Shown: in pieces, positions 22,942 through 32,222 of the stretch
How positions within the stretch are numbered: the first letter of the stretch is position 1
Layout: each line of letters begins with the position of its first letter
Assembly: GCA_028718635.1 (NCBI GenBank)
Contig: JAQULK010000001.1
Span: 543,834 to 607,833, forward strand
DNA length: 64,000 nucleotides
Source of the DNA: Minisyncoccota bacterium
Lineage (GTDB): Bacteria; Patescibacteriota; Minisyncoccia; Phycocordibacterales; UBA9973
Direction of reading: 5' to 3'
Notes under the pieces: generated by a model
Seen by the model: only the letters and a program-made list of their open reading frames with translations
Databases searched by the model: none
Told to the model about the DNA's origin: nothing
Program-made: the position numbers and the translations under genes

Positions 22942-24705
22942 TTAATAAACTTCCTGTTGATAGCACTTCTCACAATAAATTATTTCTGGTCTATCTGGTG
23001 CATAACTCGTCTCAAATTCTACTTCGCATTTTCCTGCTCCATGAAAATGATTTTGTTTATCACACATGCAGACTCTGTGCCAAAGTTTCATTGGATTTTT
23101 TTGTTTCATTCTTTGATAGTGCCTACAGTTCGGACACAACCTAGGTAAAGGCAAATTCATTCTTTTGTAAAATTGCAAATCTTCAGGAAGAATTCTGAAG
23201 GCGGTCATACAATCCTCCTCGCACCCTCCTTCATGCTCACAGCCTATCACTTCTTCTAAAATTGAGTCCTCGACTTGTAGAATACTGTCCGGAAGTTCGT
23301 TCGATTTTTTTGTAATTTTATAATCTCTTTTTTCACGATCTTTCCAATTATAACCACTTGCTAGAGCTTTTTCTTTATTCAGAGGAAAATATTCTTGCGC
23401 AGTAGTTTCATTATAGCCATATGGTGAAAATTCTACAGGAAAAAATTCACCGTATTTATATACTCTTTCTTTTTTATCCATATAAGGCATATCATTCATA
23501 TGTTTGATTATTTTAGGAACCAGTTCTTCGTATTCTTCTTTTGTGTATTGCTTGTTTAAGATGCAATATTCCTTCTTTTTTAAACCAACGCAAGCAAAAT
23601 TATTTTCTCCTCCGACAACCCTGATGCTATAATCTATATTTCTCGAACTACTCCAAACTCCCCAACTATGCTTAATATTATATGTACCATTTCCACACTG
23701 AAGACATTCATATACAAGCTCAATATTATCTCCATAATGAGTAAAATCATAAGTAGTTCGTACTGGTCCATTTGAAACAAAAGAGCAAAATTTTGAATCT
23801 TCTGTATTTATGACGCAAAAACATTCTTTGGCATTTTTGGAATGTACTATATAGTCACCAGTCACATTTGAATTTTGAACACCAAAATAATATTTTTTAG
23901 GAAATTTTTTCCAAAACTTCTTAGCTTTTTCTTTCAATGCACTTATATTTTTATAAGAATCCAATCCGAAAGATTTTAATTTTTCTTCGTATTCTTCTTT
24001 GGTGTATGGGGCATTCCAAATGTGATAACTTTTTTTATGGAGATTTACACAACCAAAACAATTATTGCATCCGCGAAGACTATAAGAAAAATATACTTCC
24101 ACGCAATCTTCACAATTTTGAGAGAAAAAAGTCCGATAACAATTTACACTAGTTACTGTTTCATAACTAAGTTCTACTCTATCTACCATAGTAATGTCCT
24201 GCGAATCTTTTGAGTGGAAAACTCCGCTTCCGTAAGATATGTCTTCGTCAAAGGTTCCATCATGAAGCAAGTAACAATTTTTCATATCATTTGCCATATT
24301 GCAATACTGAGAATTAATCATAGTCATACTTATTGCGAAAAGATTACCAATGGGAACTTTAAGAAAAAGTTCAAAAATTTGATCAAAAAATGGTCTGGAA
24401 AAATCAATATCCATTGCATAATCAGAAGCATTCCAATCATCTCCCCACCAGCATTTATCGCAATATATAGTATCTTTTTTATAATCTTTGCTATAAATAG
24501 AAATTATTTTCTTTTTACACAAACCGCATTCTCTATAATGAAGACTCTTTTCATTGCGCCATGCTAAACGTCTTTGTAATCTACACTCTGGACAAAAAGT
24601 CGGCACCGGCACTTTTATTTTTTCATAAAATCCAAAATCATTCGGTTCTATTGCAAAGTCTTTTTTGCAATTTTGGCATATTTTGTTTTCTTTTTTATGT
24701 TCCAT
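22942..24705 (-). CDS. Cys-rich family paralog 2
   Basis: Same N-terminal, central and C-terminal motifs as paralog 1. Confidence 0.9.
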   Translation of the reverse strand: MEHKKENKICQNCKKDFAIEPNDFGFYEKIKVPVPTFCPECRLQRRLAWRNEKSLHYRECGLCKKKIISIYSKDYKKDTIYCDKCWWGDDWNASDYAMDIDFSRPFFDQIFELFLKVPIGNLFAISMTMINSQYCNMANDMKNCYLLHDGTFDEDISYGSGVFHSKDSQDITMVDRVELSYETVTSVNCYRTFFSQNCEDCVEVYFSYSLRGCNNCFGCVNLHKKSYHIWNAPYTKEEYEEKLKSFGLDSYKNISALKEKAKKFWKKFPKKYYFGVQNSNVTGDYIVHSKNAKECFCVINTEDSKFCSFVSNGPVRTTYDFTHYGDNIELVYECLQCGNGTYNIKHSWGVWSSSRNIDYSIRVVGGENNFACVGLKKKEYCILNKQYTKEEYEELVPKIIKHMNDMPYMDKKERVYKYGEFFPVEFSPYGYNETTAQEYFPLNKEKALASGYNWKDREKRDYKITKKSNELPDSILQVEDSILEEVIGCEHEGGCEEDCMTAFRILPEDLQFYKRMNLPLPRLCPNCRHYQRMKQKNPMKLWHRVCMCDKQNHFHGAGKCEVEFETSYAPDRPEIIYCEKCYQQEVY

Positions 24706-24714
24706 GGTCTAATC

Positions 24715-24734
24715 TGCTTTAGTTAAGTAAAGTA
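24715..24734. promoter_or_regulatory. HisR-box-like palindrome between paralogs 3 and 2
   Basis: Minus strand TACTTTACTTAACTAAAGCA, 18/20 identical to 31241-31260. Confidence 0.6.
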
Positions 24735-24735
24735 A

Positions 24736-26439
24736 TTAATACACTTCCTGTTGATAACATTTCTCGCAGTAAATAATCGGAGCGTAAGATTCATCATATA
24801 CTGTTTCAGCTTCTATATTGCATTTTGAACAAAAACGTTTTATTAATCTAAAAGGCGAACGTTTTGCTAAACGTCGCATATGCCTGATATAAAAACTCGC
24901 GTGTGGAAGAGGTAAATCCATTTTTCTATAAAATGAAAGTTCGTTCTCTGTTATTTTATATGCCCCTACAGATTTCGAATTATTTTTTTCTTCGCATTCT
25001 ATAATTTCCTTTAAAATTGAATCATCGGTTTCGCTAATGGTTTCAGGCAACTCTGAACTTTTAATCGTTGTTTTATAATTTTTTTCTTCTCTGTCCTTCC
25101 ATTTATACCCTTTTGCTAAAACCTCTTCTTTTGACAAAGGAAAGAAGTCTGCCGCTGCTGTCTCATTAAAAGCAAAATCAGAAAAAGAGTTTGGAAAATG
25201 TTCGCCAAATCGATACTCTAAACCTTGATCAAAATAAGGCATTTCTTTCATTTGTTTTATGATTTTTTCTTTCAGCACTTCATATTCCTCTTTATTATAC
25301 TTTTTATTCAAAATTGAGTACTCTCCTTTTTTTAAACCGACACATCCAAAACAATTCCGTGCCCCTGGACAGGAATTGCAATAATATAAATCCGAGGCTC
25401 CCATCCAACACTGAGTGCAAAAGTAAATTCTAGCGATATCTAGACCGCAGTTTTCTGATTCATATACTAGTTCAGCCTTATTCCCCCATTCAAAAAAATC
25501 CATGCAGTCTTCCAAGCCGAAAACCGAAAAAAGATACTTTCCATCTTTTACATTTACACAATCAAAAGATTGATGTACGTTTTTGCAGTTCGTAAACCAA
25601 TTGCCAGAAACATCACTAGATTTTATAGAAGCAACCGCTTTTTGAGGGAATTTTTTTCTAAATTCTTCAAATTTTCTATCCATTTCCTTAATGCCAGAAT
25701 AAGTGTTCAATTTAAGACCCTTTATCTTTTTAAAATATTCTTCTTTAGAATAAGCTTCGTTAAAAATATAAAATTCCTTATTATTCAAATTAACGCAACC
25801 TACACAATCAGAACAATTTCGGCAAGCATACAAAAACGAAGAATCCCTGCAATCATGGCTCTCCATACTAAACCTAAGGTTATAACAATTTCTGCAATTT
25901 ATACATTCATAACAAAGCTCGCTTTTGTCAGTCCAAGCGCAGTCGGAACAATCTCTTATGTTCTCGGCAATATAGCTATAAAAAGAATTTTCTGCATTGG
26001 TGGCTCTGAAAACCATATAGGAATTCCTTGGACTGGTAACACGATGAGTGTAAGGGCTATTGATCGCAAAACCCTGCCTGACAAGACTCATTCTCGGAAC
26101 CTTGTTTTGTAATTCCAAAAATTGTTCAAAGAATGGACGATTTTCGTCGTAATCCATTCCATATGAAGACGGATCCCATTTATCTGAATACCAAATATCT
26201 ATATCATAAACTGGAAATATCGTTTTCTCGGGATACATACTAAAAATTTCTTTGTTCGTAAAATCACATTTGCGCTTATAAAGAATAAGCTCATTGGTGC
26301 TCATTAGGCGTCTCATTAGCCTACACTGCGGGCAAAAAGTCGGTGGTGGTACTTTTATCTTTTCATAAAACCCAAAATCATCCGGCTCAATTACGAAATC
26401 TTTTTTACAATTTTGGCAAGTTTTAATTTCTTCTTTCAT
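24736..26439 (-). CDS. Cys-rich family paralog 3
   Basis: Family motifs; ends in a clean CxxC-x17-CxxC. Confidence 0.9.
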   Translation of the reverse strand: MKEEIKTCQNCKKDFVIEPDDFGFYEKIKVPPPTFCPQCRLMRRLMSTNELILYKRKCDFTNKEIFSMYPEKTIFPVYDIDIWYSDKWDPSSYGMDYDENRPFFEQFLELQNKVPRMSLVRQGFAINSPYTHRVTSPRNSYMVFRATNAENSFYSYIAENIRDCSDCAWTDKSELCYECINCRNCYNLRFSMESHDCRDSSFLYACRNCSDCVGCVNLNNKEFYIFNEAYSKEEYFKKIKGLKLNTYSGIKEMDRKFEEFRKKFPQKAVASIKSSDVSGNWFTNCKNVHQSFDCVNVKDGKYLFSVFGLEDCMDFFEWGNKAELVYESENCGLDIARIYFCTQCWMGASDLYYCNSCPGARNCFGCVGLKKGEYSILNKKYNKEEYEVLKEKIIKQMKEMPYFDQGLEYRFGEHFPNSFSDFAFNETAAADFFPLSKEEVLAKGYKWKDREEKNYKTTIKSSELPETISETDDSILKEIIECEEKNNSKSVGAYKITENELSFYRKMDLPLPHASFYIRHMRRLAKRSPFRLIKRFCSKCNIEAETVYDESYAPIIYCEKCYQQEVY

Positions 26440-26448
26440 TTTTTTTAT

Positions 26449-26484
26449 ATTATCACTTTATAACGGCCGTTAAATTTTGATAAT
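26449..26484. repeat. hairpin Y, copy 1 (3' of paralog 4)
   Basis: ATTATCACTTTATAACGGCCGTTAAATTTTGATAAT; matches 47319-47353. Confidence 0.75.
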
Positions 26485-26486
26485 GC

Positions 26487-28238
26487 TTAATACACTTCCT
26501 GCTGATAACATTTCTCGCAGTAAATTATTTCTGGCCTCTCTGGTGCATAGCTCGTCTCAAATTCGACATCGCACTTCTCTGTCCCATGAAAATGATTTTG
26601 TTTATCACACATGCAGACTCTGTGCCAAAGTCTCATGGGATTTCTGTATTTAAGCCTGCGTGCGTGTCTACAATTCAGACAAAGGTTCGGAAGCGGTAAA
26701 TTCATGCGTCGATAAAATTGCAACTCGGCTTGAATGATCTTAAATGCGCCAGTGCATTGATCATTGCAGTTGCCGTCATGTTCGCATTTTATGACTTCAT
26801 GTATAATATCATCCTGCACCTCTGAAATAGTATCGGGTAAATCGCTCACATTTTTTGTGATTTTATAATTTCTCTTTTCGGTTTCTCTCCACGAATATCC
26901 CAAAGCCAATGCTTGTTCTTTGGTCAATGGAAAGAATTCTTGAGCGGTGGTTTCATTGTAGGCAAAAGGACAAGTTTCTATCGGGAAAAATTCTCCATAT
27001 TTATATATCAGGCCTTGCTTGTCTGTGTAAGACATATCATTCATATGGTTTATAATTTGTTCTCTTAATTTAAAATATTCTTCTTTTTCATATTGCTTAT
27101 TGAAAATACAATATTGCTTTTTTCTTAAACCGACACAGCCGAAAATATCCTTTGAATTGACACAAAACATAGAATACTCCACATTTTGGCAATTTGTGAT
27201 TATCCAATGAGAGAATTTTATATTCGCGTTCTGGTCACCGCTTTGCAATGTCTCATACAATAGCGAGGATCCTTGGCCAAACGTGCTGTGGTCGTAAGCA
27301 TCGGTTAATTTTCCTGTTATAAAACTGCAAAATTTACTGTCTTCGATCTCAAAACCAATGAAGCAATTTTTTGCATTTTTTGTGTCGTTTAAATAATCGC
27401 CAGACGATCCGATATTTCGCCATCCATGATAAAATTTTTGAGGATAATTTTGCGACAAAGATTCGACTTTCTCTTGTGCTGTTTTTATCTTTTTTAATGA
27501 ACTTGGGTATAGTTCTGCTAATTTCTTATTATAATCTTCCTTGGAATACTGTTCATTAAAAATGCAATAACTTTTTTTATTTAAATTTATACAGCCGAAA
27601 CAATCATTGCACCCTGAGCAATTTTTAGAAAACATAACATTATGGCAACTATCGCAATCAATACTGAAAAATGTATTGTAGCATCGATTGCAATTCATAG
27701 TTTCATAGCAAAGCTCGCAATGGTTCGCCATTAAATTATCCACGCTGTCCTTGCTATGATTCACGAAACTACCATAAATCAAATTTTCTCCATAATCAGA
27801 ATAAGTAACCATGTATGAATTTTTTTGCCAAGCAGACATGTTGACGTATTCAGTATTAATCCAAGTCGAATACAATCCATATAAATTCATTATGGGAACT
27901 CTGTGATACAGATCATTTATTTGCGAAATTACATTCTGTTTTGGATTAAAATCAACTCCATAATCTATCGCGTCCCAGTCATCTCCCCACCAGCACGAAG
28001 TACAATAAACATGAATTCCAGAATCTTCTGCAAAGATAGCAATCGTCTTTTTATCGCATTTTTCACATATTCGATGATGGAAAGTTCTTTCGTTTCTTCG
28101 AGCCAGCCGACGTATCAAACGGCACTCAGGGCAAAAAGTCGGCAGTGGCACGTTCATTTTTTCATAAAATCCAAAATCATCTGGCTCAATCGTAAAGTCT
28201 TTTTTACAGTTTTGGCAAGTTTTAATTTCTTGATTCAT
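26487..28238 (-). CDS. Cys-rich family paralog 4
   Basis: Family motifs. Confidence 0.9.
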   Translation of the reverse strand: MNQEIKTCQNCKKDFTIEPDDFGFYEKMNVPLPTFCPECRLIRRLARRNERTFHHRICEKCDKKTIAIFAEDSGIHVYCTSCWWGDDWDAIDYGVDFNPKQNVISQINDLYHRVPIMNLYGLYSTWINTEYVNMSAWQKNSYMVTYSDYGENLIYGSFVNHSKDSVDNLMANHCELCYETMNCNRCYNTFFSIDCDSCHNVMFSKNCSGCNDCFGCINLNKKSYCIFNEQYSKEDYNKKLAELYPSSLKKIKTAQEKVESLSQNYPQKFYHGWRNIGSSGDYLNDTKNAKNCFIGFEIEDSKFCSFITGKLTDAYDHSTFGQGSSLLYETLQSGDQNANIKFSHWIITNCQNVEYSMFCVNSKDIFGCVGLRKKQYCIFNKQYEKEEYFKLREQIINHMNDMSYTDKQGLIYKYGEFFPIETCPFAYNETTAQEFFPLTKEQALALGYSWRETEKRNYKITKNVSDLPDTISEVQDDIIHEVIKCEHDGNCNDQCTGAFKIIQAELQFYRRMNLPLPNLCLNCRHARRLKYRNPMRLWHRVCMCDKQNHFHGTEKCDVEFETSYAPERPEIIYCEKCYQQEVY

Positions 28239-31240: not shown

Positions 31241-31278
31241 TACTTTACTTGACTAAAGTAATTTACTTTGATAAAGTA
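31241..31278 (+). promoter_or_regulatory. promoter with tandem HisR-type operators
   Basis: TACTTTA-N6-TAAAGTA (31241-31260) and TAATTTA-N6-TAAAGTA (31259-31278) overlapping -35 TTGACT, 17 nt, -10 TAAAGT. Confidence 0.75.
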
Positions 31279-31283
31279 GCGGT

Positions 31284-31688
31284 ATGAGTAAAGGAATGAA
31301 TAAAAATACATCAATAAATACGGTTAAGCTGATTCAAGGAATTGGCCCCAAGATGAATTGGGACGATAAGAAAAACAAACAATTCATTGAGGCAATCTTG
31401 AGTTTAAAAAATACCGATGAAGCCGAACGTTTTTTACGTGACTTAATGACTGAAAGTGAAATAAAAGAATTTGCGAATCGCCTCGAGGCTGCTTCCCTTC
31501 TATCTAAAGACGTACAATACAATGCGATTATTGAAAGCACGGGTCTTTCTTCTACAACGATCGCCAGAATAGCAAAATGGCTCAAAGGTTCGCTTGGTGG
31601 ATATCGCTTAATTTTATCCCGCTTATCTAATGTTTCTTTGCACCATCACAACTCTTCCAAACTTAGGAAAGGGTTGTTTTTGAGTTGA
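31284..31688 (+). CDS. TrpR-like YerC/YecD (HisR) repressor with a C-terminal His-His-His leader-like tail
   Basis: EAILSLK..DEAERFLRDLMTESE, TGLSSTTIARIAKWL...GGY; tail SLHHHNSSKLRKGLFLS. Confidence 0.9.
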   Translation: MSKGMNKNTSINTVKLIQGIGPKMNWDDKKNKQFIEAILSLKNTDEAERFLRDLMTESEIKEFANRLEAASLLSKDVQYNAIIESTGLSSTTIARIAKWLKGSLGGYRLILSRLSNVSLHHHNSSKLRKGLFLS

Positions 31689-31752
31689 TAATTATTTCAA
31701 AGTATTTTTCGAAACTAACCCCTTCCTAAGTTTAGGAAGGGGTTTTGCATTT
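31641..31752 (+). promoter_or_regulatory. His-responsive transcription attenuator
   Basis: CAC CAT CAC, then 1:2 hairpin 31649-31676, 2:3 pairing 31659-31675 with 31717-31733 (16/17), 3:4 terminator AACCCCTTCCTAA/TTAGGAAGGGGTT plus TT. Confidence 0.8.
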
Positions 31753-31788
31753 AGCAAAACTAATTTTTGTTCTTTGAAAGGAAAAAGT

Positions 31789-31941
31789 ATGAGAAAAAAG
31801 GAAAAAGTAAAGAAAGAAAGTAAAAAAGAAAAAGAAAGGAAGGCAGCAGAGAAAAGAAAGTCAGAGGACAAAGAACTCGACAGATTGGTTGATAGTTGGG
31901 GCAAGCGTTTCTTTGGTCTTGGAGGGGCATTAATAGATTAG
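31789..31941 (+). CDS. small Lys/Glu-rich hypothetical protein (50 aa; not in the ORF track)
   Basis: SD AAAGGA; MRKKEKVKKESKKEKERKAAEKRKSEDKELDRLVDSWGKRFFGLGGALID. Confidence 0.5.
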   Translation: MRKKEKVKKESKKEKERKAAEKRKSEDKELDRLVDSWGKRFFGLGGALID

Positions 31942-31957
31942 ATAAGGAGGTTAAAAA

Positions 31958-32167
31958 ATGATAGGAAAGAAAAAAATGTACAAGAAAGAAGAATTTCACA
32001 CTTGTTACAGCACAAGTGAAGAAATGGAAAAGGCACTTAAACCTTTTCGCGATGACGGCTGTTCTGACATACGTTTTATGTCCGAGTTAATTGAAATCGA
32101 AAAAAAACGGAAGCAACGATTTTGCAAACTATGCCTAAGACAAAAGTATAAAAACAAGTTAGATTAA
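31958..32167 (+). CDS. small hypothetical protein (69 aa)
   Basis: Perfect SD AAGGAGG; followed by a terminator. Confidence 0.55.
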   Translation: MIGKKKMYKKEEFHTCYSTSEEMEKALKPFRDDGCSDIRFMSELIEIEKKRKQRFCKLCLRQKYKNKLD

Positions 32168-32191
32168 TATCGCGTCTAATCAACGCAAGAA

Positions 32192-32222
32192 ATGGGGCGA
32201 ATCGTGAAACGATTCGCCCCAT
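32192..32222. terminator. hairpin terminator between convergent units
   Basis: ATGGGGCGAATCGT-GAA-ACGATTCGCCCCAT. Confidence 0.8.

Follow-up and report, generated by a model that had tools for sequence, protein, structure and literature searches.

Ribosome stalling that drives antitermination is well established for leaders of the hisL type. In the E. coli trp operon, TrpR repression and trpL attenuation act on one unit as separate genes, and in SecM and MifM long leader proteins with a C-terminal sensor monitor secretion and gate translation. Candidate histidine attenuators have been described in the Bacillus cereus group, Peptostreptococcaceae and Erysipelotrichales by a study that sought attenuators upstream of his operons not controlled by HisR or a T-box and reported them in such lineages (PMC9413887). 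The available part of that study gives the HisR operator consensus as cacTTTAnnnnnnTAAAgtg, demonstrates histidine-dependent DNA binding only for the R. gnavus protein and names no Patescibacteria. PRPP was considered as the HisR effector and rejected: PMC9413887 reports histidine and has no mention of PRPP.

The analyzed window is a stretch of 64,000 nt from a 761-kb, 98.7% complete genome. The yerC genes nearest to its own carry the labels Nomurabacteria or Paceibacterota, which places the genome in the Patescibacteria (CPR). The forward strand of the window carries a yerC/hisR gene (31284-31688) for a 134-aa repressor of the TrpR family that is probably also a leader ORF. The protein passed the curated cut-off of TIGR02531 (67.3 bits versus 42.2) and scored 67.5 bits versus a cut-off of 27 for PF01371. 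The nearest PDB chains were 3G1C, 3FRW and 3KOR, and the nearest solved relatives are Firmicutes YerC proteins. The initial annotation had proposed tandem operators over the promoter, and both were located there: operator 1 (31241-31260) overlaps the -35 element and has no mismatch to the box TACTTTA-N6-TAAAGTA, and operator 2 (31259-31278), 18 nt from the first, overlaps the -10 element and has one mismatch. Elsewhere in the 761-kb genome, just two sites came within one mismatch of this box. The predicted promoter (31249-31277, forward strand) is a TG-extended sigma-70 promoter with a -35 element TTGACT at 31249, a 17-nt spacer and a -10 element TAAAGT ending at 31277; its consensus score of 9/12 is by itself not above that of shuffled sequences.

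A close set of 58 loci was obtained from 64 loci aligning to the query after removal of five duplicates and one locus without its 3' end. At least one HisR-type operator was found in 56 of these loci and at least two, mostly 18 nt apart, in 51. No Shine-Dalgarno site precedes the yerC ATG at 31284, and because the ATG follows the last operator by 3-8 nt in 41 of 58 homologs, we infer a leaderless start. Exact operator-like sites occurred in 10/11 yerC-positive genomes and in 10/22 genomes without a yerC over the cut-off, where they often lay just 3' of a stop codon; as a marker of yerC presence the operator was therefore rejected as weak.

Two operator-like palindromes in the window genome, at window positions 24715-24734 and at C1:507422 of the assembly (G000), are located directly 3' of the stop codons of ∼580-aa cysteine-rich proteins and just 5' of the next gene. 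Fifteen such paralogs (559-589 aa, 31-42 Cys, with a CxxCY..EVY ending) are found at window positions 22945-28238 and elsewhere in the genome, several of them in tandem. The palindrome accompanies 2 of the 15, and locus L213 has the same layout. It may possibly mark a wider regulon or a hitch-hiking element.

The RNA elements predicted on the forward strand start with the control codons CAC CAT CAC (31641-31649), which encode His120-122, the only three histidines of the protein. Among the 679 long ORFs in the window genome, three encode an HHH run. These codons directly precede a 1:2 hairpin (31648-31677, -10.9 kcal/mol), predicted to be a pause or anti-antiterminator hairpin and the least supported of the parts. 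The 2:3 antiterminator (31659-31733; whole helix -27.1 kcal/mol) has the coding tail of the repressor as its 5' strand: strand 2, formed by the tail codons after the histidines, pairs with the 5' arm and the loop of the terminator in 16 of 17 positions. The predicted 3:4 intrinsic terminator (31717-31752) consists of a hairpin (31717-31744, -19.5 kcal/mol) with a 12-bp stem and a tail of four U followed by GCAUUU. A 4-U tail with GCGT also follows a hairpin behind another gene of the window genome. All parts were where the initial annotation had put them, except that the terminator stem, given there as 13 bp, folds as 12 bp, since a thirteenth pair would reduce the loop to 2 nt. Strands 2 and 4 form a near-direct repeat. 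The region had a z-score of -6.3, and none of 200 shuffles was equally stable. Between 30900 and 32500 no Rfam family scored above its gathering score and no T-box or riboswitch was listed; the hisL family (RF00514) was absent among the 24 Rfam matches at E up to 5, and a match to the PyrR binding site was rejected (30.6 bits, gathering score 54).

The switch was modelled by masked folding, in which the ribosome footprint was assumed to keep the RNA unpaired to 10 nt past the A site. The terminator probability was 0-0.03 with the ribosome at the His codons and 0.96 with the ribosome at the stop codon. For the naked RNA it was 0.01, which favors read-through; the 1:2 hairpin would therefore have to act kinetically, if at all.

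We consider it likely that yerC/hisR is both a histidine-dependent autorepressor and the leader of a ribosome-stalling transcription attenuator. When histidine is plentiful, HisR would bind its operators, as judged from the Firmicutes homolog, and ribosomes would reach the stop codon and cover strand 2, so that the terminator forms and transcription presumably ends at the 4-U hairpin. A shortage of charged tRNA-His would relieve repression and make ribosomes stall at codons 120-122; strand 2 would then be available to strand 3, and RNA polymerase would read into the genes behind the attenuator, here called the slot. The stalled ribosome might also withhold finished repressor, because the exit tunnel would still enclose the last part of the DNA-binding domain. 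A histidine-free protein core would bring the ribosome to the sensor codons unhindered. The 80-residue core was free of histidine in 29/33 His-tailed and 8/32 other proteins, a count uncorrected for kinship that covers the 65 of 150 distant representatives parsed by pattern. Coupling of ribosome and polymerase would have to hold over 400 nt of leader. As an indirect look at such coupling, the distance from gene stop to hairpin stem was at most 12 nt in 5 of 28 cases.

In the 761-kb genome, hisS, tRNA-His and nusB were present, and searches for hisG, hisI, hisD and rho returned nothing. HisA/F-family proteins gave a single weak match (22 bits). Together with the missing hisG, hisI and hisD, this makes the organism most likely a histidine auxotroph. 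ARAGORN found no tmRNA in the whole genome; that neither tmRNA nor rho was found, despite the presence of nusB, bears on how stalled ribosomes and the boxA-like motif described below behave in this organism.

The slot of the window contains a Lys/Glu-rich 50-aa ORF with a Shine-Dalgarno-like site (31789-31941, forward strand, counted from the ATG at 31789), whose reality is uncertain and for which a search found no homologs. It is followed by a 69-aa ORF with a TAAGGAGGT site (31958-32167, forward strand). This ORF had no Pfam or NCBIfam match, no relative in a large protein search and no usable Atlas match; its sole other match in 100 genomes of the genus (34% identity, E 3e-7) comes immediately after a copy of this attenuator, and it is likely a real gene of a small slot family. 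A 14-bp hairpin (32192-32222) closes the unit. The initial annotation had read the downstream region as two tiny ORFs and a terminator; the closing hairpin is probably shared, because its U-run is poor on the forward strand and it precedes the 3' end of a convergent ribA-type gene.

The cargo of the slot differs in nearly every genome. A his gene was among the first three downstream genes at 10 of the 53 His-tailed close loci (hisG 4, hisI 4, hisS 2); the other cargo comprised SLOG-family proteins, nucleoside phosphorylases, HAD hydrolases, methyltransferases and orphans. In the phylum survey described below, where 60 of 92 ORFs were scanned downstream, yerC was followed by hisG at six loci, hisS at four, hisI at two and hisC and hutH at one each. 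A tRNA-His lay 3' of yerC at 2 of 60 loci scanned (L081, 1911-1983; L112, 1595-1669), in both directly behind the gene. The earlier claim that the output is not histidine biosynthesis thus applies to the window genome, in which no his biosynthesis gene was found, and fails as a property of the system: the link of HisR/YerC to histidine genes is seen in the relatives. Small Cys/His orphan proteins of 50-95 aa recur behind the attenuator (L001, L025, L026, L027, L034, L038, L230, L240) and form small families. At L007 and L013, an ORF of 18 aa, one or two of them Cys, lies between the attenuator and a larger gene; the two copies are 78% identical and possibly represent a second leader.

These observations bear on a further alternative, in which the switch works and is vestigial in the window genome, the his genes having been lost and the slot holding drifting orphan ORFs without a role in histidine metabolism. 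The absence of hits for hisG, hisI and hisD, the changing cargo, the 50-aa ORF without a found homolog and the occurrence of the RNA in only 28 of 101 genus genomes would all fit decay of this kind. Against it, the operators, the codons and all helices are intact in the window, which scores highest with the covariance model (being itself among the training sequences), a relative of the 69-aa ORF occupies this slot in a second genome, and the slot repeatedly houses salvage enzymes (SLOG, nucleoside phosphorylase, HAD) in different families. On balance we regard a vestigial switch as unlikely, though as a serious contender.

A boxA-like motif, GTTCTTTGAAA (31769-31779, forward strand), which the initial annotation had missed, directly adjoins the ribosome-binding site of the slot's first ORF. 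It differs by one mismatch from the boxA consensus GYTCTTTAANA (PMC5725501). A motif within one mismatch of a relaxed pattern was present at 32/51 close loci, versus 2.2 expected, and at 4/35 distant loci; the exact consensus was found in 7 of 51 homologs. The 16S leader of the window genome itself is unassembled. In the genus, 16S leaders gave nothing with the strict boxA pattern; a related core motif, whose relaxed pattern was drawn from those same leaders, occurred in 14/14, placed after a hairpin and a U-run. At L149 and L163, loci without yerC, a boxA-like motif lies 3' of a hairpin and 5' of a strong ribosome-binding site; these are possibly other Nus-controlled leaders. At the window locus, the motif might recruit Nus factors to transcripts that read through, or it might control translation of the first gene.

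The shared order of hairpin, U-run and core motif in 16S leaders would also suit a histidine-coupled switch that is real and does not terminate, in which hairpin and boxA-like motif form an element for Nus loading, processing or translation gating and the position of the ribosome acts after transcription. The tail of just four U, the missing hit for rho and the position of the motif, which abuts the ribosome-binding site much as the suhB boxA of E. coli does (6 nt; PMC5725501), speak for such an element. However, in distant homologs the U-tracts are long and a boxA-like motif is mostly absent (the 4/35 above), the ribosome-binding site lies outside both helices, and the 4-U tail recurs at another gene-end hairpin of the same genome. 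We hold this alternative to be improbable and retain a terminating attenuator as the preferred reading.

Selection on the RNA was investigated in the close set. Histidines occurred in the tail of 53/58 loci, a fraction inflated by a query and one search pattern that both covered the tail, and in 119/119 protein matches, which carry the same enrichment from a query containing the tail. A terminator together with significant antiterminator pairing was found at 48 of the 53. Of the remaining five, one breaks off at a contig end and another at a run of N. Three homologs without His (L015, L021, L056) are also without a terminator, and two loci of the close set have a separate short His leader right behind the yerC stop. 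A purine-tract pattern matched at 46 loci; at 45 of them the first His codon lay 21-31 nt 5' of the tract, and the other match, at 57 nt, was spurious. The pattern failed to match at seven more His-tailed loci. Between the domain and the histidines, the linker varied from 4 to 23 aa. The spacing indicates that the His codons are fixed relative to the RNA and not to the protein domain.

Covariation was analyzed in an alignment of 40 sequences, the window and 39 of the 52 other His-tailed loci, from which divergent, truncated and long-insert loci were left out; the shuffled controls ignore kinship throughout. The 2:3 helix had double-sided changes in 13 of 21 pairs, including positions in the terminator loop, and its covariation was reached by none of 500 shuffles and was far above that of slid controls. 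The 3:4 terminator had double changes in 5 of 11 pairs. For the 1:2 hairpin, 85.5% of the cells were paired and 4 of 10 pairs had double changes; its covariation was weak and was equalled in 102 of 500 shuffles. At 43/46 loci, pairing to the terminator arm was better for the native tail codons than for 95% of their synonymous recodings. Masked folding predicted a switch in 33 of 46 close loci, and 13 failed this equilibrium test. These comparisons point to selection for a mutually exclusive antiterminator and terminator.

Across 401 genomes of the phylum, a core-only search with the family model detected yerC in 98. The survey sample consisted of the 70 best of these matches besides that of the window itself, one of them a duplicate of a close locus. 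A first automated classing was noisy for distant loci, and the survey classes rest instead on masked folding, which misses some hairpins visible by eye (L050, L124). His-cluster tails were present in 28 proteins, of which 18 are outside the family f42 and ten belong to it. Outside f42, 13 of the 18 showed a switch, two a terminator only and three no terminator that could be found. None of 35 genes without a His cluster or leader (32 from the survey, three from the close set) had a switch, and eight had a terminator. Candidate separate His leaders 3' of the yerC stop (n = 11; nine from the survey, two from the close set) gave a switch in four cases. The survey of YerC homologs for His tails combined with the RNA switch, which had been suggested with the initial annotation, thus bore out the association outside f42 (13/18 against 0/35). 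His tails without the alternative structures, named there as a refutation of the idea, turned up in the divergent family f42, in which one of ten had a switch, two a terminator only and seven no terminator.

The f42 clade is a real exception to the association of His tail and switch. In YerC proteins of this family (L099, L109, L113, L118, L120, L122, L126, L137, L140), an HRHH-type motif, also of the form HRHHR, comes right behind the domain, and the tail is long and variable. In many cases ribD follows; most of these loci have no terminator, and a small number retain a second His site and a hairpin. In another group (L079, L102, L108, L116, L145) the histidines lie within the domain end, followed by a hairpin with a U-run and then by hisG, hisI or a nucleoside phosphorylase, and no switch was predicted. 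A second fused form, with His codons of a WxHHG domain end preceding a terminator, was considered and rejected, as masked folding lent it no support (0.72/0.96 for L079, 1.0 for L116) and classed L079, L108, L116 and L145 as terminator-only.

The leader peptide of the window is the 134-aa repressor, and short dedicated forms exist only in relatives. The covariance model matched 28 of 101 genus genomes; among the 27 best of these matches, 24 were at a yerC end with in-frame His, one was at a contig edge and two were stand-alone leaders. One of these loci, L236, encodes a 26-aa HHRNH peptide directly 3' of an operator-like promoter, and the other, L239, a 24-aa HTH leader peptide 5' of hisS; no yerC over the cut-off was found in their genomes (92% and 88% complete, respectively). 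A further copy of the attenuator with its own HH leader lies within one operon at L227. Masked folding predicted a switch for L239 and L227 and weakly for L236 (0.48). A purely protein-based role of the tail fails to explain a leader peptide that stays with the RNA in genomes without a detected repressor. In a tree of 94 rows and 91 columns, with the close set thinned, the fused label required at least six changes on well-supported branches; no direction of change between the forms is claimed, because the backbone is open and the labels were set by eye.

That the His tail serves the protein (in metal binding, oligomerization or as a tethered histidine mimic), with a constitutive terminator behind it and the 2:3 pairing as by-product of a short duplication, would fit the near-direct repeat of strands 2 and 4 and the seven of ten f42 tails without terminators, but it is very improbable given covariation that takes in loop positions, which would be unconstrained in a plain terminator, the loss of pairing on synonymous recoding in 43/46 loci, a His position that tracks the RNA and not the domain, and the survival of the tail as a stand-alone peptide.

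The proposal of the initial annotation that repression and attenuation are fused in one gene has therefore gained comparative support from the covariation, the His codons fixed to the RNA, the association of His cluster and switch and the split forms. If correct, two textbook layers of control would be joined in one open reading frame, with a DNA-binding repressor as the leader peptide. A folded repressor as leader of ribosome-mediated attenuation would be a new form, and screens limited to short upstream leaders would miss it. No relevant report of a HisR-fused or Patescibacteria attenuator was found in the literature searched, which consisted mostly of papers outside subscription. The circuit would offer a testable case of amino-acid sensing in Patescibacteria, whose regulation is little known, and evidence for transcription-translation coupling in this phylum. 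The slot genes may serve as a candidate list for what host-dependent cells switch on when histidine is short. More tentatively, and with odds that we place slightly short of even, Patescibacteria, most of which are unable to make histidine, may possess a one-gene, three-layer histidine sensor, in which a leaderless repressor carries the attenuator leader as its tail and needs the sensed amino acid for its own completion. The unit would act as a portable expression slot triggered by starvation and followed by boxA, in which his genes, salvage enzymes and small orphan proteins are exchanged as cargo, and fused, split and repressor-less forms would have been interconverted several times. Should this hold, minimal cells would couple transcription and translation without Rho.

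Among known systems, hisL-type leaders (E. coli, RF00514) share with the window the tandem His codons directly 5' of an alternative antiterminator and terminator and the same logic. They differ in that hisL is a short peptide, whereas the window leader is a folded 134-aa repressor, predicted to be leaderless, and its RNA matches neither RF00514 nor any other Rfam family at the gathering score. The trp operon likewise combines repression and attenuation on one unit, with TrpR and trpL as two genes. SecM and MifM resemble the window in their long leader with a C-terminal sensor, whereas here an amino acid would be sensed and transcription controlled. The boxA/Nus elements of E. coli rrn and suhB (PMC5725501) are comparable in that the window motif is one base off, lies beside a ribosome-binding site and occurs in a genome with nusB; unlike them, it lies behind an attenuator in a genome in which rho was not found. 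With the HisR/YerC proteins of Firmicutes and other phyla, as described in the available part of PMC9413887, the window protein shares a family score over the cut-off, the 20-bp TTTA-N6-TAAA operator, predicted autoregulation and a frequent position as first gene of a his unit; it differs in its histidine-free core and in a C-terminal His tail whose codons form the antiterminator strand. A Collinsella YerC, taken as a control from a plasmid collection, has no His tail. In Chlamydia trachomatis, trpR-trpL has a putative leader 3' of the TrpR gene, and the WWW run of YtgCR is a codon run in a repressor ORF that links amino-acid supply to transcription (PMC7755916). In YtgCR, stalling leads to termination and loss of the trans-acting repressor, and the available part of PMC7755916 describes no alternative hairpins; in the window, by contrast, stalling is predicted to give read-through in cis.
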